Position numbers and translations under genes: made by a program
The notes under the pieces: generated by a model
Database searches by the model: none
Seen by the model: only the letters and a program-made list of their open reading frames with translations
What the model was told of the DNA's origin: nothing
Assembly: GCA_017431625.1 (NCBI GenBank)
Contig: JAFRKQ010000021.1
Span: 77,324 to 141,323, forward strand
DNA length: 64,000 nt
Origin: a bacterium
GTDB taxonomy: Bacteria > Patescibacteriota > Microgenomatia > UBA1400 > PJMF01
Direction of reading: 5' to 3'
Part shown: piece by piece, positions 21,873 to 57,988 of the stretch
How positions within the stretch are numbered: position 1 is the stretch's first letter
How the letters are laid out: each line of letters opens with the position of its first letter

Positions 21873-24014
21873 ATGCTAGCACTCGTAGCAATGGTGATTG
21901 TGGCCATTCTTATTGTAGCGATTGGTTGGAAAGTGTGGCGTTTACGACCACACAGTCATGATCGCATTTTATTTTTTACCCTGACTTTAATCATCAGCTC
22001 TTGGATGCTTTGCAATTACTTTTCCATGACCACCACTGACCCTGGTGCCTTTTTGCTTTTTGTGCGTTTGGTGATGATTATTACCGATTTGCTACCACCA
22101 GTTTTATTTCTTTTTTCTTTAAGTTTTCCGCGCCAACAAATTCACATGCGCCGACGTCGGCAAATTGCTCTGGCTTGCTGGACGCTTGTAGTCACTGGTC
22201 TGAATTTTACCACCTATGTTTTCCCCAGCTGCTACTGGAAAAATGACAAACTCCTCCCTCAGCCAGGTTGGGGGTTTGTAATTGTGCTGATTAATATGCT
22301 CGTGTTGATTTCTTTGGCTTGTTATAATTTTTTTCAAAAAAGTAAACAGGCTCGAGGCTTGGAAAAAATTCGTCTGACTTACTTTGCATTTTCCTTTAGT
22401 TTGGCGATGGTGATTGCGGTAGTTTTCAATTTAATCCTACCAGCATTATTCCAAAACTCCAGCTTCATGAATATTGGGATTATGTTCATGGGTTTGACTT
22501 TCATTGGTGTTACTGGATATTCTATGCTCAAAACTACTTTTTCCAGTCTGGATTTACTTATTGCCAAGGGGGTGTTTTATTTGGTTTTGCTAGTGTGGCC
22601 CACGCTGCCTCTTGTCGCTCATTATCATTTGCCTGTCAATGATACACCACTACTGGCAGGGATTACTTTTATCTTGTTTTTGGCTTGGATGGGAGCTTTT
22701 GTCTATATCTACAATCACCTTGATAAATTTTTGATCAAAAAAATTGTCAATCATGGTGCCGACTGGCAACACGAAAAACAAAAGTTTTTGACCAGGCTCA
22801 GAGATGAGCTTGATTATGAAACTATCATTACCGAAACACTGAATTTTTTTGCTAAACTCATAAAAAACTCTGGTAATTTAATTGTGGGTGATTTTATGGA
22901 CGAAGATGAAATCAGAGCCTGGGGACAATTGGCACCAGCAGCGCAAAAAATCTATTCACTCGTACGCGGCTTGTGGTTACATAAAAATACTGGCCCTTGG
23001 CTGCTGGAACAAATTGAAACTGATCCTCAATTATCCAAGCTCACGATCGCTATGAAACGCTATGGTATTGCTGCTGTTTTTCCCATTGTGATTTATGACG
23101 AGTATAAAGGCGTATTACTTTTTGGCAATAAGATCAATGGCAACCCTTTTTTTATTCAAGACATTGACTTGATCGAACAAACATTAGATGAGCTCGCGCC
23201 ACTGCTTAATAAAGCCATTATCCACCAAACGACTGAAGACTTCAACACTCACTTGCAACGAAGAATTAATAGTGCCACTAGTCGTCTTAGGCGTATGAAC
23301 CAAAAACTAATTGCCGCCGATAAACTCAAAGATGAATTTGTCTCTGTGGCGAGCCACGAATTGCGCACCCCCATGACCGCCATCAAGGGTTATCTATGGC
23401 TAGTCGCCAAAAATAATACCCCCGAACAACTAGCTACCAATCAAAAATATATTGAAATCGCTCTTAATTCCACCGAAAGACTGATTGCGCTTGTCAATGA
23501 CATGCTGACAATCTCACGCATTGAGGGTGGTCGCTTTGCTCTCAATCTTGATATTATTGACGCTAGACAACTCGTCAGTCAAATCCAAACCGAATTACTG
23601 CCTATTGCCGCTGATAAAAAACTATTTTTTAAGATCAAAAACCCACGCGAAAAAATGCTAATCAAAGCTGATAGCAAAAGAATTTTGGAAGTTTTACACA
23701 ATCTCACCGGCAATGCTCTCAAATTTACTCCCCAAGGAGGGGTAACAATGATCACTCGTGCCGACGACAAATACGTGTATATTGATGTCATTGATACCGG
23801 CGTGGGCATTGATGAGCAAGATTTCAACAAACTCTTTTCTAAGTTTGCTCGGATGGAAAAATCATATGTAAAAATTAAAGAAACTGGCACGGGTCTTGGA
23901 CTTTACATTTCCAGACAGATTATGAAAATGCATCATGGCGATATTACTTTTTCGAGTCGTCGTGACCACGGCAGTACTTTCACAATTTATTTGCCTCGCG
24001 CTCCCCAAAAATAA
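21873..24014 (+). CDS. Sensor histidine kinase with polytopic N-terminal membrane domain
   Basis: About 8 TM helices, HisKA (…SVASHELRTPMTAIKGYL…), HATPase_c (…HNLTGNALKFT…DTGVGI…GTGLGL…). Confidence 0.9.
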   Translation: MLALVAMVIVAILIVAIGWKVWRLRPHSHDRILFFTLTLIISSWMLCNYFSMTTTDPGAFLLFVRLVMIITDLLPPVLFLFSLSFPRQQIHMRRRRQIALACWTLVVTGLNFTTYVFPSCYWKNDKLLPQPGWGFVIVLINMLVLISLACYNFFQKSKQARGLEKIRLTYFAFSFSLAMVIAVVFNLILPALFQNSSFMNIGIMFMGLTFIGVTGYSMLKTTFSSLDLLIAKGVFYLVLLVWPTLPLVAHYHLPVNDTPLLAGITFILFLAWMGAFVYIYNHLDKFLIKKIVNHGADWQHEKQKFLTRLRDELDYETIITETLNFFAKLIKNSGNLIVGDFMDEDEIRAWGQLAPAAQKIYSLVRGLWLHKNTGPWLLEQIETDPQLSKLTIAMKRYGIAAVFPIVIYDEYKGVLLFGNKINGNPFFIQDIDLIEQTLDELAPLLNKAIIHQTTEDFNTHLQRRINSATSRLRRMNQKLIAADKLKDEFVSVASHELRTPMTAIKGYLWLVAKNNTPEQLATNQKYIEIALNSTERLIALVNDMLTISRIEGGRFALNLDIIDARQLVSQIQTELLPIAADKKLFFKIKNPREKMLIKADSKRILEVLHNLTGNALKFTPQGGVTMITRADDKYVYIDVIDTGVGIDEQDFNKLFSKFARMEKSYVKIKETGTGLGLYISRQIMKMHHGDITFSSRRDHGSTFTIYLPRAPQK

Positions 24015-31975: not shown

Positions 31976-34120
31976 TCATTGATTAGGGGGCACGCTACCA
32001 GGACTCCCCATCAGCTGACGCTGACCGCGATCACCACGTCGAGCCGCGCCGCTTGCTTCCCCAGACCGATTACCACCAAAACCACCGCCGGGATTCATAC
32101 CGCCGCCGCCAAAACCGGTGTTTCCGCCCACACTGATAGCGTCTTGGGTGACAGTTTGCGTTTGCGCGCCCACGCTCACTGTATAAGTCTGACCGACTTG
32201 AAGTTCAGGATGCGAAAAAACGACACTATTACCAGTTTTTTGCACTCTGTACGAGACTAATTCTCTCTGGGAGCTATCACTAATAGTCAAAGTCTGACCA
32301 CTGGTATAATTGGTGGCAAAATTAACTTTAAATGCGGCTTGAGTTGAATTGGCCGAAAAAGTCTCCGCCATGCCCGACGAGCCTAAAGCCAAAATTGTCC
32401 CACCATGAATCACAATATCGCCGCCGCTTTCCGAACCTGAGTCCAAAGCACCATTGCCACTATTAGTGGGCCCGTCAATAATAATATCACCACCATTGAT
32501 AATTAAGTTGCCGTTGGAATCCAAACCATCGCCATCAGCGTGCACTCGTAGTATGCCACCGTCAATTTGCAACCAAGCTAAATCTTCATTACTGACAGTC
32601 ACTGTCTGTCGCCAACCAAAATCCTGGCTCTCACCGTTGCTAGCATTAAAACCATCATCTTGGGTAGTAACATCGTAGTTGCCACCAGTCACATAAATCC
32701 GCGCTCCTTCAACTCCTTCATAGCTAGCAGTCACTTGCAAATCTCCACCTTGTAAATAGACGTTATTGTCAGCATGGACGGCATCATCACCGGTAGTGAG
32801 TGTGATTTGCCCACCGGCCAGAGTGAGATCGCCATCACTATGCAGAGCGTCATCGCGACAATCCAGCACCAGTGTTCCCGCCATAATGGCCATGCTGCTC
32901 CCAGCCTTCAGACATTTGGCTGACGCCTCGCCATCTTCATCGGTATAATTGACATCACGCTGCCTAGTGGCCAAATCTGGCGGCTCAAAACGGGTCTCAT
33001 TAGACAAATTTTGATCAAAATCACTAAAATTTGGCTGTAAATCAATATTTTCCATTGGTGATAAATTACCCCATTCTGGTGGCATCGGCGGTCTGTCGCC
33101 ACTACTAGCCAGCATAGCAGTAAAATTTTCCCAGTTGTCATCTTCTGATGGGGGACTCGCAAAAGCGCGCGCTTGCTTGTCATCGCCAGTGTCAGTAGTC
33201 GCTTCCGGTCTCATCGCCCCCGGGCCAGTTTCTTGATGAGAACTAGCGGCCGCACTGCCACCACCAGTCATGATGGTAAAATGACCACCATTAAGCGTTA
33301 GATCGGTTTCGGCTTGTAAACCATCACCATCAACGTCAAGAGTAAACTGACCATCATTGATGACAATATAACCTTTGTCAGCTTTGGCGATATTATTAGC
33401 TTTAATACCCTCGCCACCACGCAAATCAAATTCACCAGTAGCGATCCGCACCGAGTCTTTGCCCAAAAGAGTGGTGCGAGTGGCCGTGATTTGGTAGTGA
33501 CCACCAGTAATCACCAGATCATCGCTGCTTCTAATCCCATGACCACCGGTCGCCGTCACACTTAGAGAGCCATCGCCATTAAAAGCCAAATCTGCTTTGG
33601 CGTAAATTGCCGCCGTCACGCCCGCGCTACTCGCCTCGGGACTGATTAAATTAGCCGCCACAATACTATTGTGAGTGTCGTCTGGGAGGGTCACAAAAAC
33701 CTTGTCTGCGGCTTTAATCCAGATCGGTGCCAAGGTCTCATGACGCAAATCCACATTGTTAAGTACCAATTGTACTTTGCTATCTTGGGCGTCCACGATT
33801 ACCTGCTGATTGTCCAAACTACCAGATAAAACATAGCTACCGGCGGTCACAATATGAACATCACCATTCAAAACATAAGCCCCGCCATTATGACCCAAAT
33901 TGGTCAAATCATTAAGATCGATTTTGATCGCGCTCGTCTCACTCCATGAACTATCATAATCGCGAGCCGAAAAGCTACCGCCACGATCAGCACCGCCATC
34001 AGAAATAATTTTACTCACACCCAGCCGCTCACTATTGATAAAGATCACTGTTAAAGCTACCGTCGCCGCTACAATGAGACCGCAAATCAAATCTGTATGT
34101 CGATGCAGAGACCAATTCAT
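31976..34120 (-). CDS. Large secreted/anchored protein with parallel beta-helix-like repeats and Gly-rich C-terminus
   Basis: N-terminal signal anchor, recurrent GG/DGDGL/ITGG repeat pattern, C-terminal GGNTGFGGGGMNPGGGFGG. Confidence 0.4.
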   Translation of the reverse strand: MNWSLHRHTDLICGLIVAATVALTVIFINSERLGVSKIISDGGADRGGSFSARDYDSSWSETSAIKIDLNDLTNLGHNGGAYVLNGDVHIVTAGSYVLSGSLDNQQVIVDAQDSKVQLVLNNVDLRHETLAPIWIKAADKVFVTLPDDTHNSIVAANLISPEASSAGVTAAIYAKADLAFNGDGSLSVTATGGHGIRSSDDLVITGGHYQITATRTTLLGKDSVRIATGEFDLRGGEGIKANNIAKADKGYIVINDGQFTLDVDGDGLQAETDLTLNGGHFTIMTGGGSAAASSHQETGPGAMRPEATTDTGDDKQARAFASPPSEDDNWENFTAMLASSGDRPPMPPEWGNLSPMENIDLQPNFSDFDQNLSNETRFEPPDLATRQRDVNYTDEDGEASAKCLKAGSSMAIMAGTLVLDCRDDALHSDGDLTLAGGQITLTTGDDAVHADNNVYLQGGDLQVTASYEGVEGARIYVTGGNYDVTTQDDGFNASNGESQDFGWRQTVTVSNEDLAWLQIDGGILRVHADGDGLDSNGNLIINGGDIIIDGPTNSGNGALDSGSESGGDIVIHGGTILALGSSGMAETFSANSTQAAFKVNFATNYTSGQTLTISDSSQRELVSYRVQKTGNSVVFSHPELQVGQTYTVSVGAQTQTVTQDAISVGGNTGFGGGGMNPGGGFGGNRSGEASGAARRGDRGQRQLMGSPGSVPPNQ

Positions 34121-34128
34121 GAATGCCT

Positions 34129-34797
34129 TTACATGTATTCACCATTAAAACTAACCAATACCGCGCTCGTCACGCCATCCAGCTGACTCAATTCGTTGAC
34201 AAAATCTGTCCGGCCATCATTAAGGCGCAGTTCGTAGGTAAGTTCAAACTTGCCCGCACGAGCCGTTTTACTTTTGAGATTGACCTTGCTTGCTTGGGCT
34301 CGTAAAATTTTATCTGCCATTTGCTCACTTACATCCCCATCACAAGTAATAATGGCCATAAAAGGCTTGGTCTTGGTTTGGCGATTGGCAAAAAGCATGA
34401 TCACCACTCCGATCAGCAAACTACCAAAAACTCCCAGCGGGAACATACCGGCAGCCAGCACAATGCCGACCGCAATTGACCAAAAAAGGAAAGCAATGTC
34501 CAATGGCTCTTTGATTGCTGCCCGAAAACGAACAATTGACAACGCCCCCACCATACCCAAAGAAAGAACAATATTGGAAGTCACGGCCAAAATAATAAGC
34601 GTGGTAATTAGCGATAGGGCAATCAAAGTCACCCCAAAACTGGTGGAATACATAACCCCTTGATAGGTCCGGCGGTACACCCAAAATATAAAAACACCAA
34701 TGCCGAAGGCCAAAAGCATCGCCAGTACCATATCAAACATTGATACCGCGGTGACATTTTCCAAAAAACTCGACTTAAAAATATCACTTAAACTCAT
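34129..34797 (-). CDS. DUF4956-like polytopic membrane protein
   Basis: 4-TM N-terminal half plus soluble C-terminal domain. Sits next to VTC-domain gene, a recurrent pairing. Confidence 0.5.
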   Translation of the reverse strand: MSLSDIFKSSFLENVTAVSMFDMVLAMLLAFGIGVFIFWVYRRTYQGVMYSTSFGVTLIALSLITTLIILAVTSNIVLSLGMVGALSIVRFRAAIKEPLDIAFLFWSIAVGIVLAAGMFPLGVFGSLLIGVVIMLFANRQTKTKPFMAIITCDGDVSEQMADKILRAQASKVNLKSKTARAGKFELTYELRLNDGRTDFVNELSQLDGVTSAVLVSFNGEYM

Positions 34798-34864
34798 TTT
34801 TCCTTTCTCTCTTGCATTTTTTATTCATTGTTTTCATACTATTATTACATATTGCCATCAATTC

Positions 34865-35560
34865 CTAACCAAACACCCGGCAATTGGCGTACTTAGAAAA
34901 TGGTGCTGTTCGTCGCCCCGTCAGTTGTACGACTGCCTTCACTACATCGGGCAAAAAAGTATCCCATTTCACCTCCATCACTGCTGGGTTATCAGGCACG
35001 CTGACCGTAGGTAAATCAGGACTTAAGGCCTCAGTGCTCGTCACCCCCGTACGCAAGTCATAATCCAGAGTCACCCGCACACCACCAGCAGGATAAAAAT
35101 AAGCCTCGCGTTGATAATCCACGATAGTCTTGGGACGCAAACCTTGGGTGAGCATTTTGTAGTAAAGCTCGCGCAACAAATCAAACTCACTGTCAGCCAA
35201 CCACAACCAATCGCCAGCGATTATTTTTTGTGTTTCTTTGCTGGTTAGTGGTGCCATTGTTTTATTGCCAACACTATTCCACTTGTATTTTTTCTCCAAG
35301 CGAATAAATGACAAATCGTGATTGTAATAACGAATGCGAAACTTCTCACGTTTATTAACACCATCAAGTTTTTCGCGCAAAGCTTTATTTTCTGGAGTGT
35401 CAAAATAAAGACTCCTGATAAAATAAAGTCCATCGCCATGCAAAGAGTAGGGGTCAGGAGTCAGCACCGAGCGCAATCGTGTGCGTAAAATCTGCAAATC
35501 CATTTGATTAATGGCAATTTTCCACTCGTAGCGATAATCTCGCAAACCTTCAACACTCAT
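34865..35560 (-). CDS. VTC-domain (CYTH-like / polyphosphate-polymerase-like) protein
   Basis: …DYRYEWKIAINQMDLQILRTRL…LYFIRSLYFDTPEN…KFRIRYY… resembles bacterial VTC domain proteins. Confidence 0.55.
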   Translation of the reverse strand: MSVEGLRDYRYEWKIAINQMDLQILRTRLRSVLTPDPYSLHGDGLYFIRSLYFDTPENKALREKLDGVNKREKFRIRYYNHDLSFIRLEKKYKWNSVGNKTMAPLTSKETQKIIAGDWLWLADSEFDLLRELYYKMLTQGLRPKTIVDYQREAYFYPAGGVRVTLDYDLRTGVTSTEALSPDLPTVSVPDNPAVMEVKWDTFLPDVVKAVVQLTGRRTAPFSKYANCRVFG

Positions 35561-35679
35561 GAGAAGTATTATACCACATCTAGTTTAAAAAATAGTTAAA
35601 ATCCATACTAATTACATTAACTAAAAATCATTTAAGAGTCATTGGTCACCAACCGAAACACTGCCCGCTACCAACTTAG

Positions 35680-35739
35680 TGCGGAGATCTGTGCGTAGCT
35701 CGGCACTAGAGTGCGGAGCTCGGCGCACAGCTCGGCACT
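35680..35739. repeat. Repeat element copy B (same 12-bp unit architecture as 24077-24136, direct orientation)
   Basis: Units TGCGGAGATCTG, TGCGTAGCTCGG, 8-bp spacer, TGCGGAGCTCGG, CGCACAGCTCGG, CACT. Confidence 0.8.
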
Positions 35740-35832
35740 AAAGCGCCAAGCTGTGGCGGACGGCGACTTTCTATCAATACCGAATAAGTGAATTAACTAA
35801 CAAAAAACTGACAATTATCAACAAAAAACATT

Positions 35833-36717
35833 TTATGTGGTCACAAAAGTAGGATAAATTAAACCAGTGGTAATTGCTTGTGGACGCAAGTCTTCAATTT
35901 CTGCCAAACCCACTTTACCCCAATACAAATCACGAATATCATGAGTGGGATCACGCAAATAAGCCGCCACTTGATGATAGCCTTCCCAATAAACCAAATC
36001 CTTGGTAAATCCCCCGGGCTGACTGGTATCGCGAACACCCCGCTTGACGCGCAAACTATTGGTAAAAGCGCGCGCCGGCGATAAACCTAAACGCAAATTT
36101 TGCTGGTACACCGTCTTAAAATCCGCCGTCTGTGCTAAATAAACCAAGGTATAAAGCAAAGCAGCTTGTCGCAGATCGGGATTGTTTTTATCCTTACTAT
36201 TATAAATGGCCAGACCTTCTTCTGTTTTTTTCCAGTATTTTTGACGTTGACGCATCTGTGCGTGCCACGGCTGGTGCTCATCATTGAGTCGACGCAAAAG
36301 ATGGGTTTGGATTTCGTGATTGAGGACACTGACGAATTGCTCTTGACTGACTTTGGCCGGCCACTGGACGCTGAGAGTCAGATCATCGCGCATCATAAAG
36401 CGACTATTTTGCTGGCGACTTTTGACTAAAGTAATGGGTGCCATGCCCAAGCGCACGCACAAATCTCGCAATAAAACTTCCAGCTCAATAAAACTCAAGG
36501 GGTGATCAATCACACTCGTCGCTTTGAGAGAGTGTTGATGCAAATAAGCTTGTGAGTGCTCATACTCCAAGCGGCTAGGAAGGCCATATTTGGTCAAAAC
36601 AGCCAGTGAATAATCTCGAGCATAAACAAACTGAGGATTGTAATCACCCCCACGCTCCCAAAATATTTGCTTTTGTTCGTCTAAATTTAATGGTACCAAA
36701 TTACTAATCAAACTCAC
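35833..36717 (-). CDS. DUF1704-like protein (QEGLA-motif Tyr/Phe carboxypeptidase-like family)
   Basis: …NHEIQTHLLRRLN… and …KKTEEGLAIYNS… (EEGLA variant of the QEGLA motif). Confidence 0.45.
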   Translation of the reverse strand: MSLISNLVPLNLDEQKQIFWERGGDYNPQFVYARDYSLAVLTKYGLPSRLEYEHSQAYLHQHSLKATSVIDHPLSFIELEVLLRDLCVRLGMAPITLVKSRQQNSRFMMRDDLTLSVQWPAKVSQEQFVSVLNHEIQTHLLRRLNDEHQPWHAQMRQRQKYWKKTEEGLAIYNSKDKNNPDLRQAALLYTLVYLAQTADFKTVYQQNLRLGLSPARAFTNSLRVKRGVRDTSQPGGFTKDLVYWEGYHQVAAYLRDPTHDIRDLYWGKVGLAEIEDLRPQAITTGLIYPTFVTT

Positions 36718-36741
36718 CCCAGTATTATACCATATCAGACA

Positions 36742-38373
36742 CTACTTTTTACCCCATTTTGGCAAGCGCAACTTGAAGCGCTGATTTTGATAATCGACAA
36801 TATCGGAAAGTTTTTCAATTTCGCGTGAACTATTACCCAGACGAATATAAAATTTTTCTTGCTTGACCCCATTTTTGTCCGTAATATTGGTATATAATGC
36901 CGAGTGACCTTTTTTGACTTTGACCACGCAGACTTCTTTATTTTCCAGCACCGGAAAAAAGATTTCAATCCTTCTGGCGGCAAAATGTTGACCGTAAGCC
37001 TGAGAAATCATCGCTCGCAAGTGTAACTCAAAACCATCTTTGTCAGGTTTTTTGAGCGTGGTGTAGTCATTTTCCAACCCCAAGACGCGAGCATCGTCGC
37101 TCACCCCAATAATTAATAAACCACCATCAGTATTATTGAAAGCGGCTACACTTTTGAGAATCGCATGTTCCAAATTTTTGTTGAGTTGTTTTTGATTGAG
37201 ATCAAACCGCAGTGTAGACTTGAACTCGAGTCCCGCATTTTCCCCATTTTTGATAATGTCCTTGATCTGATTGGTAAAATAAAAGCGTTTGGAATAACGA
37301 GCATAGTAATAGAAAAAAGTTAGCAAATTGGCCGCAATAAAAATCAAAAGCACCCAAGTGATCCACGATGTGCGAATGCCCCAAAAGCCAAAAGGCTCAA
37401 CTTCAGGCACAATAATGGCCAACAAATTATACTCAGTACGCGTGACTGCCGGCGAGATTTTGACCCAATACGTCTGACGATCTAGCTGATAGGGGAAGAT
37501 ATCTCGTCCCGTCTCAAGATATGTTTGCCACAAGTGATTATCCAAAAAACGTCCGCGCCGCTCGGCCAAAAGACCACCGGGTATATTCTCACCGTCAAGA
37601 GGCAACAATTCTGCCTCGAGGCTGGCTTGTAGCGACATGGTCAAATCCCAAAAGTAAAGCTGATGAGTAGCGTGACTGCTAGCAAAAGTAATCGCTCCAA
37701 TTTGTTTTTGATGAGGCCGCAAAGCCGTAAACTCTCCCGGAAAATCTATTGCCGCCAAAAAATATACTTTTTCGCCACTATCATCTTGTGTCAACCAAAA
37801 AAGTGCGATTTCACGGGATTTTTCTGGTTTGGCGGCATACCAATAGATCTGATCGGGTGGAAGTTCTTGCGTCAAAAGCCAAGCGACAAAATCCTGGTCA
37901 ACACCGGTTTCGAGCTGCCAAGTCACGTCACCAGTATCTTCATCTCGAGTGGGACGCGCGAGCCACTGATTATTGACACCGACACGGCCAAACTGTAAAT
38001 ATTTGAGCGCTGGCAATTGTTTCAAGGTGGGAGTCAAACTGGCGACAAATTGCTCGCCGTCTGTCTCGCTAGTCACTTCGCTCACAACTCTGGTAGCAAG
38101 ATTTCCTTGATAATCCAACCAAAAATATAAACTATCATAAGCAGGATAAAATTGCGTGACAAATTCATTTTCCACGCGCTCCAGCTCATCACGATTGATC
38201 AGCAAATGAATTTGCCGACTACTCAATAAATATTGAGCCACCAGAGCCAAAACCACAAAAACTAACAACCAACGCGCTCGATCAAACAGTGTCCGACCGC
38301 TGACATCCCGCACTTGAAAAGGCTGGAGAAGGCGATTGTTCTGTACTGACTGCCAAAAAGGTATTTTTGCCAT
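36742..38373 (-). CDS. Membrane protein: TM1, ~310-aa extracytoplasmic domain, TM2, cytoplasmic AlbA_2 (Schlafen-like) DNA-binding domain
   Basis: C-terminus …ENAGLEFKSTLRFD…AFNNTDGGLLIIGVSDDARVLGLE…CVVKVKKGHSALYT…KFYIRLGNSSREI matches AlbA_2. Start corrected to MAKIPFWQ (ATG at 38373). Confidence 0.6.
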   Translation of the reverse strand: MAKIPFWQSVQNNRLLQPFQVRDVSGRTLFDRARWLLVFVVLALVAQYLLSSRQIHLLINRDELERVENEFVTQFYPAYDSLYFWLDYQGNLATRVVSEVTSETDGEQFVASLTPTLKQLPALKYLQFGRVGVNNQWLARPTRDEDTGDVTWQLETGVDQDFVAWLLTQELPPDQIYWYAAKPEKSREIALFWLTQDDSGEKVYFLAAIDFPGEFTALRPHQKQIGAITFASSHATHQLYFWDLTMSLQASLEAELLPLDGENIPGGLLAERRGRFLDNHLWQTYLETGRDIFPYQLDRQTYWVKISPAVTRTEYNLLAIIVPEVEPFGFWGIRTSWITWVLLIFIAANLLTFFYYYARYSKRFYFTNQIKDIIKNGENAGLEFKSTLRFDLNQKQLNKNLEHAILKSVAAFNNTDGGLLIIGVSDDARVLGLENDYTTLKKPDKDGFELHLRAMISQAYGQHFAARRIEIFFPVLENKEVCVVKVKKGHSALYTNITDKNGVKQEKFYIRLGNSSREIEKLSDIVDYQNQRFKLRLPKWGKK

Positions 38374-38545
38374 TTGCTCATATTTTACCCCAAAAAATAC
38401 TATTTTGAGAGGCAATTTGCCAACAAGACAAAAAACCTTGGCACACGCGCCAATGTGACCACAGATGTTCACTGCTTGACCCGCAAACATCATTTTGCCT
38501 TAGCAAAATGTGCACATGTGAGGTATAATAAGCAGTATTAACAAT

Positions 38546-38631
38546 GGAAGCATCGCCTAGCGGCTATGGCAACAGTCTTGAAAACTGTCGGGGTTTCCCC
38601 GTCGTGGGTTCGAGTCCCACTGCTTCCGCCA
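38546..38631 (+). tRNA. tRNA-Ser (anticodon TGA), long variable arm, encoded CCA
   Basis: Cloverleaf read manually: acceptor GGAAGCA/TGCTTCC, D-arm GCC…GGC, anticodon stem ACAGT/ACTGT with loop CTTGAAA, 15-nt variable arm, T-arm GTGGG-TTCGAGT-CCCAC, discriminator G + CCA. Confidence 0.9.
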
Positions 38632-38700
38632 AACCTTTCTCGTTTTGGCATAACTTAAATATCGACTCACCTAAAATCTGCATCAAGCGGATTTATTGTT

Positions 38701-38937
38701 ATGAGACGATATTATAACATACAAATTGATACAAATGTGACTAATTTCACTGATGGTGCCGATCTTTTGTGTCGCGAAATCAAGAAATTACACTCATGGG
38801 AGCGTATCAGTGTTATTAAAAATTTGCTCCAAAAAGGCTTAAGTCAAGCAAAAATTGCCAAGATTCTGGGAGTAAGTCCTCAATCAATCAGCCAACTGTT
38901 AAAACAAAATCCCACAAGAAAGGAAGACCATGAGTGA
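38701..38937 (+). CDS. Small HTH DNA-binding protein (Cro/excisionase-like candidate)
   Basis: C-terminal helix-turn-helix GLSQAKIAKILGVSPQSISQL. Confidence 0.5.
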   Translation: MRRYYNIQIDTNVTNFTDGADLLCREIKKLHSWERISVIKNLLQKGLSQAKIAKILGVSPQSISQLLKQNPTRKEDHE

Positions 38938-39238
38938 AGTCGTTTTGTCATTATTTTGACTTTAGTGTTTGTCAGCATCCTTTTTATCCTTTCTGGCGAA
39001 CCAAGTATAAAGTAGTTGTGAGTTTCACAGATGACTTTAAGGAATTAAAGCCATTCAATGAGACAAACGTAATAGTTCTTTGACATCGGGTGGCAAATGG
39101 CAAGCGGGGTTTTCGTTTTTTTCGCCCCGTTAGACATAATCATTAATAATTTCTAACTTTTTGCACCGCAGTTATGCTTTAGTTTGTCTTTGGCATCTTG
39201 TCAGCCAGTCGCCCGATGGTCCAAAGATAGGTGGACAT

Positions 39239-45786: not shown

Positions 45787-45957
45787 TGTCTAAAATGTTT
45801 GGATTGTTATATAAACTCTGGACATGCTGTCTGGCGTAGTTTTCCGAACATCATTGGCTCGTTACAACCACGTGTATTATACCACAATCAAATACTGTAT
45901 CGTTATTGTATTGTGACTCTATCTATACTCTATCCATATACTATTTTTAACTCTGGC

Positions 45958-45985
45958 TTGACAACAGACACAAAATAACTATAAC
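45958..45985 (+). promoter_or_regulatory. Phage promoter-like element copy 1 (TTGACA-16-TATAAC)
   Basis: cTTGACAacagacacaaaATAACTATAAc. Two more copies at 48643 and 57961. Confidence 0.55.
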
Positions 45986-46642: not shown

Positions 46643-48646
46643 ATGCCTTTCTCTGTCAGCGCAATGGATTCGGAACAACCCAAAGTCAATTTACAAATTG
46701 ACAAATTTGAAGGTGTCAACAATCTGGTGCGCGACGCTCGAACTAAGCCGTCAGAGGCCGTGACTGCACTTAATCTTTACCAAGTGGAGGATGGTGTCTG
46801 GACACCCAGACCCGGAACAATTCAATTTGGTCAAGCCTTGCCTGGTAGTGACAATTCAGTAATTAACGGCGCGGCCGAATATGTAACCACCGATACTCAC
46901 AACAATGAGGTGCGATCAATTATTGTCGTTATTGACGGGAAACCATACAAATCTACCGATGCGGGAGAAACTTGGGTGCGGATTAACGGTACAACTTTTG
47001 ATGCGACTGCCAAAATTCGCTTTTTGCAACTAGGCGGTCAGATGTATATTTTTAATGGAATCAATCCTTTGGCCATTTATGAAGGCTCGACACTGACAAC
47101 TTATGCTGGCATCTCGGCGCCCACAAATCTGTCTGCCAGTCTTGGCAGTGGTTTGTCAGCCGGCAGCTACAAACAATACTATCAAGTGACAGCGATTAAT
47201 GACGTGGGTGAAACTGCCGCTTGCAGTGAAATTTATATTGCTACCTCCAAAGAGCGAGATATGTGGTCAGCTGGCAACAACGAGAGTGTAGTTTTAAGCT
47301 GGACTGCCGTTTCTGGAGCTACTGGCTATCAAGTGTATTGGTCGGATATTTCAGGCCATGAAAATCTGCTTGCTCGGGTCACTACCAACTCATTCACTGA
47401 TGACAATACCAATACTGCCAATCCTTACGTCGACACGCCTGACGACAACACCACCGCCGCCCCAGTTTTCGCCAGCGCTTGGATTAGTGATAATGCCATT
47501 TACGCTACCAATGATCCTGAGCATCCTTATCGAGTTTATCGCACAGGAACAGGGGTTAATTTGGGCAAGTTTAGCGCATTTTATGATGGATTTTGGATCG
47601 ATTTGGAACGTGGAGGGCGTGAAAAACCCAAAGCGGGACGACATTATCAGTCGGGTAGCGGTGAGGGGCGCTCGACAATTTTTTGCTCAACCCCAGAAGG
47701 ACATGGTAGTGTCTGGCAAATTGTGGTGGACACGGCAACTGTGGGTGAAGATTCTTTCCCCGCACCAGCTGCTTATAAAATTACAGGCTCAGTAGGGACA
47801 GACTGTGTCGATGGTGTCATCAATGTAGAAAATGATGTATTCTTTCCCAACAAGCAAGGTATGTACGCACTTGGACCGGAAAAAAACTATTTTGGAATAT
47901 TACGAACAAATAACTTAGCCGCGATAATTATCGAGTACTGGAATAGTCTTAAAGGTGGGAAAATCAAGGATATTGCCGCTTATTATTGGAAAAACAAGGT
48001 GCTTATATCAGTCTCCACAGATGGTATCACCAATAACCGCACCATTATTTACGACCGCGAACGTTTGCGCTGGTATACAGATTGGTCGATTGGCTTTCGC
48101 TCGTTTTTTGAGTTTACCGATAGCGCCGGAACATCACACTTAATTGGCATCCACGAACATGGTAATACTCTGACTGAAATTTCCGAAAATGTCAAAGGTG
48201 ATTTGGGAAAACCATTTCGCTGTATTTATTTATCTGGGCGGCTGCCTCTTAATAAATCCTGGAATAAATTTGCGAAAATCAAAAAAGCCTACGTGATGCT
48301 TGGGCGGCTGCGAGGGACAGTGAAATTTTCAATTTTGGGCACGCTTAAGAAAAAGGGTTACGCGGCCCTGGCCTCAAGAGCGATTTCCATTTCGCTTTCC
48401 GGAGCAGGAATTGGCTGGGATGTGATTGGTCTGTCCTTAATGGGTGCAACCGATGGCAAACCCGCTTCATATTCAGAATCATCAGACATCCGCTACCTTA
48501 AGGTCAACAAAAAGATCCGCGATATCCAATTCAAGCTCGAATCTGAATCCATTGACAGTGAATTTACGCTTTTAGGTCTCAAGGCCGAAGGCTTCCAAAT
48601 TAACACCTCTGACCCAAGTGTTTGGAAGCTTAAAAAACAGGCTTGA
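46643..48646 (+). CDS. Phage structural protein with BNR/Asp-box (KSTDAGETW) and FN3-like regions (candidate tailspike/depolymerase)
   Basis: 667 aa. Asp-box SxDxGxTW, FN3-like segment …SAPTNLSA…YYQVTAINDVGETAA…. Confidence 0.45.
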   Translation: MPFSVSAMDSEQPKVNLQIDKFEGVNNLVRDARTKPSEAVTALNLYQVEDGVWTPRPGTIQFGQALPGSDNSVINGAAEYVTTDTHNNEVRSIIVVIDGKPYKSTDAGETWVRINGTTFDATAKIRFLQLGGQMYIFNGINPLAIYEGSTLTTYAGISAPTNLSASLGSGLSAGSYKQYYQVTAINDVGETAACSEIYIATSKERDMWSAGNNESVVLSWTAVSGATGYQVYWSDISGHENLLARVTTNSFTDDNTNTANPYVDTPDDNTTAAPVFASAWISDNAIYATNDPEHPYRVYRTGTGVNLGKFSAFYDGFWIDLERGGREKPKAGRHYQSGSGEGRSTIFCSTPEGHGSVWQIVVDTATVGEDSFPAPAAYKITGSVGTDCVDGVINVENDVFFPNKQGMYALGPEKNYFGILRTNNLAAIIIEYWNSLKGGKIKDIAAYYWKNKVLISVSTDGITNNRTIIYDRERLRWYTDWSIGFRSFFEFTDSAGTSHLIGIHEHGNTLTEISENVKGDLGKPFRCIYLSGRLPLNKSWNKFAKIKKAYVMLGRLRGTVKFSILGTLKKKGYAALASRAISISLSGAGIGWDVIGLSLMGATDGKPASYSESSDIRYLKVNKKIRDIQFKLESESIDSEFTLLGLKAEGFQINTSDPSVWKLKKQA

Positions 48647-48670
48647 CAAAATCACTCAAATAACTATAAG
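48643..48670 (+). promoter_or_regulatory. Phage promoter-like element copy 2 (TTGACA-16-TATAAG)
   Basis: gcTTGACAaaatcactcaaATAACTATAAg. Upstream gene's TGA stop lies inside the -35. Confidence 0.55.
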
Positions 48671-54370: not shown

Positions 54371-54395
54371 CAATGTTTATTGGTTTGTGCTTTTG

Positions 54396-54466
54396 TTGTG
54401 AAGCCCGGACTCGAACCAAGATTTGCGGGGCCAAAACCCGCTGTGCTGCCATTGCACTACTCCACA
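54396..54466 (-). tRNA. tRNA-Gln (anticodon TTG)
   Basis: Manual fold: acceptor TGTGGAG/CTTCACA, D GTGC-AATGGCA-GCAC, anticodon stem GCGGG/CCCGC with loop TTTTGGC, T-arm CTTGG-TTCGAGT-CCGGG. Confidence 0.8.
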
Positions 54467-54468
54467 AT

Positions 54469-54542
54469 TGGCAGATGTCCCAGGATTTGAACCCAGATTA
54501 CTGGTTTTGGAGACCAGTGTGCTGCCGTTGCACTAGACATCT
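54469..54542 (-). tRNA. tRNA-Trp (anticodon CCA), CCA encoded
   Basis: Acceptor AGATGTC/GACATCT, D GTGC-AACGGCA-GCAC, anticodon stem CTGGT/ACCAG with loop CTCCAAA, T-loop TTCAAAT. 2-nt spacer from tRNA-Gln. Confidence 0.8.
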
Positions 54543-54565
54543 ATTATTGTATCATCATTTCGATG

Positions 54566-54637
54566 TTGCGGAGGCTGGACTTGAACCAGCGTTTTGCCCT
54601 TATGAGAGGCCTGCGATACCGCCTCGCTCACTCCGCA
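54566..54637 (-). tRNA. tRNA with CAT anticodon (elongator Met or Ile-lysidine type; not initiator-like)
   Basis: Acceptor TGCGGAG/CTCCGCA, anticodon loop CTCATAA, T-arm GCTGG-TTCAAGT-CCAGC. D-arm one nt short. Lacks the 3 GC pairs of initiator. Confidence 0.65.
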
Positions 54638-57911: not shown

Positions 57912-57960
57912 AATAGCCCCTCTTATAGTTGTTTTAACCCTTTTGTCAAGCGCGAATGGC

Positions 57961-57988
57961 TTGACAAAATCGCTCAAATAACTATAAA
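57961..57988 (+). promoter_or_regulatory. Phage promoter-like element copy 3 (TTGACA-16-TATAAA)
   Basis: ggcTTGACAaaatcgctcaaATAACTATAAa. Sits in the divergent region between the lysis/fibre minus block and the head module. Confidence 0.55.

Follow-up and report, generated by a model that had tools for sequence, protein, structure and literature searches.

The gene at positions 36742 to 38373 (minus strand) of a 64,000-nucleotide stretch of contig JAFRKQ010000021.1 (assembly GCA_017431625.1, positions 77,324 to 141,323 of the forward strand; the whole stretch is referred to below as the window) raises the question of what an AlbA_2 domain does when it forms part of a membrane receptor. Does it bind DNA, or does it cut RNA? 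The initial annotation described a transmembrane (TM) protein in which a large domain outside the cytoplasm is joined to an AlbA_2 domain inside it, and proposed a sensor that binds DNA directly, in the manner of ToxR and CadC. Analysis of the protein pointed to a different output. As judged from alignments and structural models, the AlbA_2 domain shows all the features, in sequence and in fold, that mark an active Schlafen tRNase. With a probability of roughly 55%, the gene product is read here as a membrane-anchored Schlafen RNase gated by a ligand or by an envelope signal, in which the second TM segment would re-orient paired nuclease domains and thereby cause tRNA cleavage and translational arrest. 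The domain order, two hydrophobic segments with their charge bias, the folds of both domains, an intact catalytic motif and the conservation pattern are observed.

The maximal minus-strand open reading frame (ORF) in the ORF list of the window extends from 36742 to 38493 and encodes 583 amino acids. The methionine codon at 38373 (MAKIPFWQ...) coincides with the aligned start of 12 of 13 full-length homologues; one homologue, P0002, carries 17 additional N-terminal residues. Because the starts of the homologues align there, the start at 38373, which gives a protein of 543 amino acids, was chosen. A protein 100% identical to it was found in one metagenome contig in ENA. Conservation was analyzed in a family alignment of 14 full-length members (A1) and in an alignment of 41 wider relatives with identities down to 32% (A3). 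Structures were predicted with AlphaFold2 (AF2), and the full-length model was built on the 14-sequence family alignment. The gene and the parts of its product are as follows.

36742 to 38373, minus strand: complete gene from the ORF list, stop codon included, encoding 543 amino acids in the order TM segment, double Cache (dCache)-like domain, TM segment, Schlafen (AlbA_2) domain.
38272 to 38373, minus strand: N-terminal cytoplasmic tail (residues 1 to 34), net positive, with a conserved PFQVRD motif; F19 and D23 are invariant.
38215 to 38271, minus strand: first TM segment, TM1 (residues 35 to 53), WLLVFVVLALVAQYLLSSR, with a Kyte-Doolittle 19-residue window of up to 1.94; translation checked.
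37369 to 38214, minus strand: extracytoplasmic sensor domain (residues 54 to 335) with a predicted double-Cache-like fold.
37300 to 37368, minus strand: second TM segment, TM2 (residues 336 to 358), SWITWVLLIFIAANLLTFFYYYA, with a Kyte-Doolittle window of up to 1.97; translation checked.
37243 to 37299, minus strand: juxtamembrane helix (residues 359 to 377), which prolongs TM2 to about 2 residues from the catalytic motif in the AF2 model.
36775 to 37242, minus strand: Schlafen/AlbA_2 nuclease-type domain (residues 378 to 533), from Pfam PF04326, AF2 and Foldseek.
37219 to 37242, minus strand: catalytic motif ENAGLEFK, corresponding to Ex4ExK (E378, E383 and K385), from the translation and alignments A1 and A3.

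Pfam assigned residues 378 to 519 to SLFN_AlbA_2 (PF04326) with an E value of 6.4e-16 and 59.4 bits against a cutoff of 25.3, which bears out the AlbA_2 domain of the initial annotation. A profile search against PDB sequences returned Schlafens only, with the ExxxxEFK and GVxDD regions aligned. A second AF2 model, covering residues 360 to 543 and built on the 41 diverse relatives, reached a predicted local distance difference test (pLDDT) score of 93.4. Foldseek analysis of this model revealed the SAMD9 tRNase (E = 6e-7), the bacterial AlbA_2 protein DIP2311 and SLFN13, SLFN11, SLFN14, SLFN5 and SLFN12, all with a probability of 1.00. The modelled domain has the alpha+beta fold of the Schlafen C-lobe type and is most similar to the SAMD9 tRNase and to the nuclease lobes of SLFN13, SLFN11 and SLFN14. 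The only PADLOC hit on the protein was a weak, local match to pAgo (E = 6.5e-4, 44 residues); an Argonaute identity was rejected, and the match was read as the Schlafen module of Slfn-pAgo. No NCBIfam model matched the window protein or its relatives from Brachyspira, Bacteroidota and Flavobacteriia.

Comparison of the catalytic residues revealed that E378, E383 and K385 are invariant in all 14 family members and in all 41 sequences of the wider alignment, and that at least 90% of the sequences retain D426. The Schlafen box (AAFNN) and the GGxLxIGV core are likewise conserved (SVAAFNNTDGGLLIIGVSDD), with A410, A411, F412, N413, N414, G417, G418 and G423 invariant in A1. The mean pairwise identity within the family is 0.72 for the Schlafen domain, 0.66 for the juxtamembrane helix, 0.44 for the N-terminal tail and 0.35 for the ectodomain. 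The effector is thus conserved and the sensor variable, and the tail also stands above the ectodomain.

Prokaryotic Schlafens (pSlfn) with an Ex4ExK-type motif are tRNases that are controlled by fused sensors through a change in oligomeric state (PMC13056530; PMC13462974; bioRxiv 10.64898/2026.05.29.728809). The tRNase group includes RorSlfn5 (Ig-like-Slfn) and EcoSlfn7 (DUF262-Slfn) (PMC13056530). The Ex4(E/D)xK motif has been defined as catalytic (PMC13056530; PMC13462974); in Cash (Csx15-Slfn) the catalytic residues are E17, D22 and K24 (PMC13462974). The Schlafen box (SAFAN-like), followed by a glycine-rich and hydrophobic core stretch, has been described for SLFN-pAgo work, in which dimerization was found to rebuild the nuclease architecture of mammalian Schlafens (bioRxiv 10.64898/2026.05.29.728809).

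With respect to topology, Kyte-Doolittle windows revealed two strongly hydrophobic segments and no more, at about residues 35 to 53 and 336 to 358. Both the N-terminal tail (residues 1 to 34) and the stretch after TM2 (YARYSKRFYFTNQIKDIIK) are rich in lysine and arginine. Because of these K/R-rich flanks, the positive-inside rule places residues 54 to 335 outside and the two ends of the protein in the cytoplasm. This N-in, C-in arrangement is favored by the hydropathy profile, by the bias in charge and by the Cache-like fold predicted for the middle domain. The charge bias likewise puts the AlbA_2 domain on the cytoplasmic side, and the layout (TM, Cache-like ectodomain, TM, output domain) looks like that of a sensor contained in one transmembrane protein, as had been annotated. 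The two-pass architecture also stood; only the size of the external domain had to be corrected, from about 310 to about 282 amino acids (residues 54 to 335, between the two hydrophobic segments), which fits the 250 to 300 amino acids expected of a dCache domain.

In the full-length AF2 model the ectodomain begins with a long helix, after which come two alpha/beta modules, an order of elements that fits dCache domains; the pLDDT is about 80 to 90 over most of its length. Searching the PDB with the modelled ectodomain by Foldseek revealed, among the top 50 matches, nearly exclusively ligand-binding domains of the dCache type or receptors that carry them. These matches include TlpQ, Tlp3, TlpA/C, PctC/D, Mlp24, the ectodomains of histidine kinases and one GGDEF sensor, with best E values of 4e-6 to 1e-5. 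A profile of the ectodomain and the TM segments was searched against 1.84 billion representatives and retrieved seven proteins, all but one of the same family. The single outside match was a dCache_1-HAMP-HisKA kinase with a marginal E value of 6e-4. Alignment to this kinase with hhalign gave a probability of 91.7% over only 57 columns, which cover the membrane-proximal end ('...YWVKI.P......LAIIvPE') and TM2. Apart from this one marginal kinase, no other output domain was found on the same ectodomain among the 1.84 billion representatives; a shuffling of the ectodomain with kinases or methyl-accepting chemotaxis proteins (MCP) was considered and is not demonstrable from the profile search. 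We conclude from the modelled fold that the outer domain is probably a divergent dCache-like sensor, private to the family of the window protein.

The two domains appear to be closely coupled. In the full-length AF2 model, TM2 and the juxtamembrane segment form one helix (residues 335 to 377), and the domain model contains a corresponding helix at its residues 2 to 16. In both models the helix derived from TM2 stops about 2 residues before E378. The models thus predict a very direct mechanical link from the transmembrane helix to the active-site strand. On this basis, the double-Cache-like, periplasm-facing domain would bind an extracytoplasmic cue, and TM2 would carry the signal, as in other TM-dCache-TM receptors, in a single helix continuing to about 2 residues before Ex4ExK. 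In a receptor dimer or oligomer, movement of this helix might re-orient the two Schlafen domains and thereby form or unmask a tRNA-binding nuclease groove. The tRNA would then be cut and translation throttled. In this scheme tRNA as the substrate, the rearrangement of a dimer as the activating step and the biological role are inferred.

Several points weigh against a gated membrane RNase. The topology is a prediction from hydropathy and the positive-inside rule, and the full-length AF2 model is only moderately confident (mean pLDDT of 67.8). The Foldseek TM-scores of the ectodomain are modest, about 0.4 to 0.5 when normalized to the target. The Pfam Cache and dCache models did not match the protein, for which PF04326 was the sole Pfam family at an E value of 1 or below, and the usual amino-acid-binding motif of dCache domains is not evident among the invariant ectodomain residues in A1. 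Finally, the AlbA_2 domain of SAMD9 was crystallized with DNA (7ksp), and binding without cleavage is therefore conceivable.

The SAMD9 crystal speaks for the view of the initial annotation, a membrane-tethered regulator whose AlbA_2 domain would attach to DNA or RNA but leave it uncut, and in which a ligand bound outside would alter promoter occupancy. The database names of homologues ('putative DNA binding domain-containing protein', 'AlbA family DNA-binding domain') agree with such a role, although these names were assigned automatically and are untested. The presence of HTH (helix-turn-helix) domains in many bacterial AlbA_2 proteins (PMC13056530) also speaks for it. In ToxR and CadC, a winged helix of the OmpR type at the N terminus is followed by a single TM segment and a periplasmic C-terminal domain. 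The window protein resembles them in joining an outside sensing domain to a cytoplasmic domain that interacts with nucleic acid, but it differs in having two TM segments, a cytoplasmic N-terminal part of 34 residues and a C-terminal nuclease-type domain. Its topology is thus the reverse of theirs, with the output placed C-terminal to TM2 as in sensor enzymes. A Pfam scan of the window protein detected no HTH or OmpR-type (Trans_reg_C) domain. The invariant Ex4ExK motif would not be needed for a pure binding role. Furthermore, no SOS response was triggered by RorSlfn5 in its activated state, which led the authors of that study to conclude that DNA is not its target (PMC13056530). Together with the Schlafen box and the fold match to SAMD9, SLFN11, SLFN13 and SLFN14, these observations argue against a direct DNA-binding output, and we regard a regulator of the ToxR/CadC kind as improbable.

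Full-length homologues are rare: only about 15 were found among 5.8 billion clustered proteins, and six full-length loci (L001 to L006) were found in species-representative genomes, mostly of uncultured Pseudomonadales or in metagenome-assembled genomes (MAGs) from the gut. The same order of TM segment, sensor, TM segment and Schlafen domain is present in 24 Brachyspira loci (487 to 502 amino acids) and in several Bacteroidota loci (about 516 to 535 amino acids). Profile-profile alignments with the Brachyspira and Bacteroidota forms run from the Schlafen domain back into the ectodomain. In the Brachyspira loci (L007 to L030, from several named species and MAGs), the thioredoxin reductase gene trxB lies immediately downstream in 24 of 24 cases, e.g., in L027 (9038 to 10501 and 10673 to 11605). 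The TM-Schlafen gene behaves like a core gene in Brachyspira and not like an island gene. The Bacteroidota neighbors include genes for peptidase C69, QueG and a TadA-like deaminase, and IspF adjoins in the Spirochaetes MAG L031. As an anecdotal observation, tRNA-modification genes flank the TM-Schlafen gene in two Bacteroidota loci, one encoding the TadA-like deaminase (L036, 9580 to 10026) and one the epoxyqueuosine reductase QueG (L037, 7961 to 8884).

Membrane attachment is frequent among the nearest relatives of the Schlafen domain. A TM survey of 81 ORFs matching this domain, in 80 retained loci of species-representative genomes, revealed a TM segment 15 to 45 residues before the motif in 53 of them. 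The earlier statement that AlbA_2 is usually found in soluble proteins does not apply to this subfamily. About 15 of the 53 are short and consist of a two-TM hairpin and the Schlafen domain, with no ectodomain. Short membrane-anchored Schlafens of this kind (about 253 to 287 amino acids), with a two-TM hairpin directly before the domain and no ectodomain or obvious sensor, were observed in Bacteroidota at L043, L044, L047, L050, L051, L053, L054, L058, L059, L065, L066, L074 and L080. In other architectures, the closest Schlafen domains are fused to receiver (REC), cNMP-binding, CBS and bPH_2 domains and also to DUF262 and STAND. The closest soluble relatives, P0062, P0063, P0044 and P0061, carry fused cNMP-binding, response-regulator receiver, paired CBS and bPH_2 domains. 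Because soluble relatives are fused to such classical signaling inputs, this Schlafen subfamily may act as a general output of signal transduction.

The genomic surroundings in the window include three features next to the Schlafen gene.

38394 to 38423, minus strand: promoter-like site TTGGCA-18-TATTTT, 20 nucleotides 5' of the start codon and inside the longer ORF; it comes from a consensus scan alone and is weak evidence.
35833 to 36717, minus strand: predicted metallopeptidase of the MATCAP/DUF1704 (QEGLA-type) family, beginning 24 nucleotides after the stop codon of the Schlafen gene (Pfam PF08014, E = 2e-22).
38546 to 38631, plus strand: tRNA-Ser(UGA), from ARAGORN and Rfam, upstream of the Schlafen gene and divergent from it.

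The MATCAP-like protein carries HEIQTH (an HExxxH-type motif) and EEGLA motifs, and TIGR02421 matches it below its cutoff. Its gene is probably co-transcribed with the Schlafen gene. The close linkage suggests another explanation for the protein, namely a membrane RNase that is constitutive or released by proteolysis, in which the outer domain would serve mainly as an anchor or for partner binding and the peptidase would exert control, e.g., by freeing the nuclease. The retained HExxxH-type motif and the position of the peptidase gene immediately downstream of the orthologue in L001 to L003, the three closest genomes, are consistent with this. The peptidase gene is absent, however, from L004 to L006 and from all Brachyspira and Bacteroidota members; moreover, the ectodomain has the fold of a ligand-binding domain and is kept at full length across phyla. 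A constitutive or peptidase-controlled RNase is thus judged very improbable. In Brachyspira, the downstream gene was considered as a hidden MATCAP homologue and rejected, as it encodes the thioredoxin reductase. The MATCAP peptidase was also rejected as an obligatory partner, the adjacency being limited to the window and L001 to L003, and because it is absent from more distant family members, it was placed outside the core mechanism of the gated RNase.

A cluster directly downstream of the MATCAP gene and on the same strand (31976 to 35560, minus strand) looks conserved; it encodes a VTC (polyphosphate-polymerase-like) protein, a DUF4956 membrane protein and a Cthe_2159 carbohydrate-binding protein of 714 amino acids. 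About 13 kb from the Schlafen gene, a histidine kinase with an N-terminal 7TM region (HisKA_7TM-HisKA-HATPase_c) is encoded at 21873 to 24014 on the plus strand. PADLOC detected no defense gene among the ten chromosomal-side ORFs checked (25.9 to 36.7 kb). Among these ten and two further upstream, a glycosyltransferase gene, polysaccharide-synthesis genes, the VTC-DUF4956-Cthe_2159 cluster and the 7TM kinase gene were identifiable, and several had no Pfam match. An Rfam scan of 35500 to 39200 detected tRNA only and no regulatory RNA. The GC profile gave no signature of foreign DNA, the GC content of the gene matching that of its surroundings.

The tRNA-Ser(UGA) gene also adjoins the Schlafen-MATCAP pair in L001 (12563 to 12648), L002 (9832 to 9918) and L003 (9862 to 9946). 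Three arrangements occur. In the window the tRNA gene lies upstream of the pair and diverges from it; in the other three loci it follows the pair, on the strand of the pair in L001 and L002 and on the other strand in L003. Eukaryotic SLFN11 and SLFN13 prefer type II tRNAs such as those for Ser and Leu. The linkage may be meaningful, or it may be plain synteny around an integration hotspot. Directly beyond the tRNA-Ser gene, PHROGs revealed a prophage-like region (38701 to about 57400) encoding an HTH protein, a DnaD-like replication initiator, a terminase large subunit fragment, tail fibers and an endolysin. A direct repeat of the 3' end of tRNA-Ser that would mark a prophage att site was not found, and no integrase was identified next to the tRNA-Ser gene. 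Three copies of a 30-nucleotide sequence, GGCTTGACAAAATCACTCAAATAACTATAA, were found in the phage-like region (45955 to 45984, 48640 to 48669 and 57958 to 57987), with 77 to 100% identity; the sequence has TTGACA and TATAA elements and is probably a repeated phage promoter. Genes for tRNA-Gln(UUG), tRNA-Trp(CCA) and tRNA-Met(CAU) form a tight cluster at 54395 to 54637 on the minus strand, within or at the edge of this region, and may be phage-encoded tRNAs or mark the far prophage boundary.

The position of the gene next to the prophage integration site might point to an anti-phage abortive-infection receptor, whose outer domain would detect phage adsorption, tail or ejection proteins or envelope damage and whose Schlafen tRNase would halt phage translation. 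A fast-evolving sensor combined with a near-frozen effector, as in the identities given above, is typical of immune receptors. The prokaryotic Schlafens tested act in phage defense (PMC13056530; PMC13462974), and the soluble close matches include STAND-Slfn and DUF262-Slfn proteins, the latter of the EcoSlfn7 type, which is active against T7. Against this stand the absence of defense genes from the ORFs checked with PADLOC and the housekeeping neighbors of the relatives, i.e., trxB in Brachyspira and peptidase C69, QueG, IspF and deaminase genes elsewhere. In addition, searches of 50,697 phage and 72,556 plasmid records yielded no full-length homologue. The association with defense islands, which is typical of pSlfn genes (69.6%, with about 30% not defense associated; PMC13056530), was not seen for the window gene among the ten neighboring proteins checked with PADLOC, and the relatives have housekeeping neighbors. 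A dedicated defense function is thus considered unlikely, though less so than the other alternatives. Because the family occupies stable housekeeping neighborhoods, we lean toward a growth or stress switch triggered by the envelope or the environment rather than a classical defense-island gene.

Comparison of the putative gated RNase with known systems shows which of its parts are familiar. It shares with pSlfn proteins (RorSlfn5, EcoSlfn7, Cash and SLFN-pAgo) the PF04326 effector, the Ex4(E/D)xK motif, the Schlafen box, the single-lobe fold and the joining of sensor and Schlafen domain in one protein, and DUF262-Slfn proteins are among its closest sequence matches. The pSlfn sensors are cytoplasmic, whereas the sensor of the window protein is transmembrane with an extracytoplasmic Cache-like part; the protein is membrane anchored, and its gene lies in a housekeeping and not a defense neighborhood. 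With TM-dCache-TM receptors it has in common TM1, a two-module alpha-beta ectodomain of about 280 amino acids, TM2 and an output directly after TM2, as well as the fold match and the '...iiPE' end of the ectodomain, which aligns with the dCache_1 kinase. It differs from these receptors in its output, which is of the Schlafen nuclease type and not a HAMP-kinase, MCP signaling or GGDEF module, in the lack of a HAMP domain and in a sequence too divergent for the Pfam dCache models. Eukaryotic Schlafens (among them the tRNases SLFN11, SLFN13 and SLFN14) and SAMD9/9L, of which SAMD9 is an anticodon nuclease, have a homologous fold and the same catalytic acidic and lysine positions, and by this comparison a cleavage of tRNA that shuts down translation would be expected. 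In contrast to the window protein, they are soluble, with a two-lobe pseudo-dimeric nuclease and helicase or other domains, are regulated by phosphorylation, dimerization or viral cues, and include no membrane receptor.

The effector family and the principle of a sensor fused to a Schlafen domain are already known. Prokaryotic Schlafens were shown to be tRNases only in 2025-2026, and those characterized use cytoplasmic sensors. A TM or Cache fusion to Schlafen is not mentioned in the main texts of PMC13056530, PMC13462974 and bioRxiv 10.64898/2026.05.29.728809, the supplementary tables of the first two (55 architectures and 558 unannotated clusters) lying outside this scope. A full-text literature search combining Schlafen or AlbA_2 with Cache or transmembrane gave no relevant hit.

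The window protein might represent an undescribed class of bacterial transmembrane receptor with RNA cleavage as its direct output, a possibility placed somewhat below even odds. In such a class, an extracytoplasmic Cache-type domain would gate a cytoplasmic Schlafen tRNase in an 'Ire1-like' logic, and a chemical cue, envelope stress or phage contact would lead to translational shutdown with neither second messengers nor phosphorylation. It would comprise a core gene of Brachyspira and occur also in Bacteroidota and in gut or uncultured Pseudomonadales. Ire1 is a eukaryotic sensor of endoplasmic reticulum stress, in which a lumenal sensor controls a cytosolic RNase through oligomerization; it has a kinase-KEN RNase and a single TM segment. 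What is shared with Ire1, by analogy only, is a transmembrane protein whose outer sensor controls a cytosolic RNase. Homology is not claimed, as the folds are unrelated (kinase-KEN RNase versus Schlafen), the kingdom is another and Ire1 crosses the membrane once.

If this reading is true, the largest family of extracellular sensors in bacteria would gain RNA cleavage as an output, and the TM-Schlafen family would offer a concrete candidate for the sensing of ligands, stress or phage at the envelope rather than in the cytoplasm. The system offers a simple, testable case of Schlafen switching via dimer geometry, and its interest would be higher if outside-in gating of the tRNase were demonstrated. 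Brachyspira includes gut pathogens of animals and humans, and the core-gene behavior of the TM-Schlafen gene in this genus suggests a physiological role, which is genetically testable.

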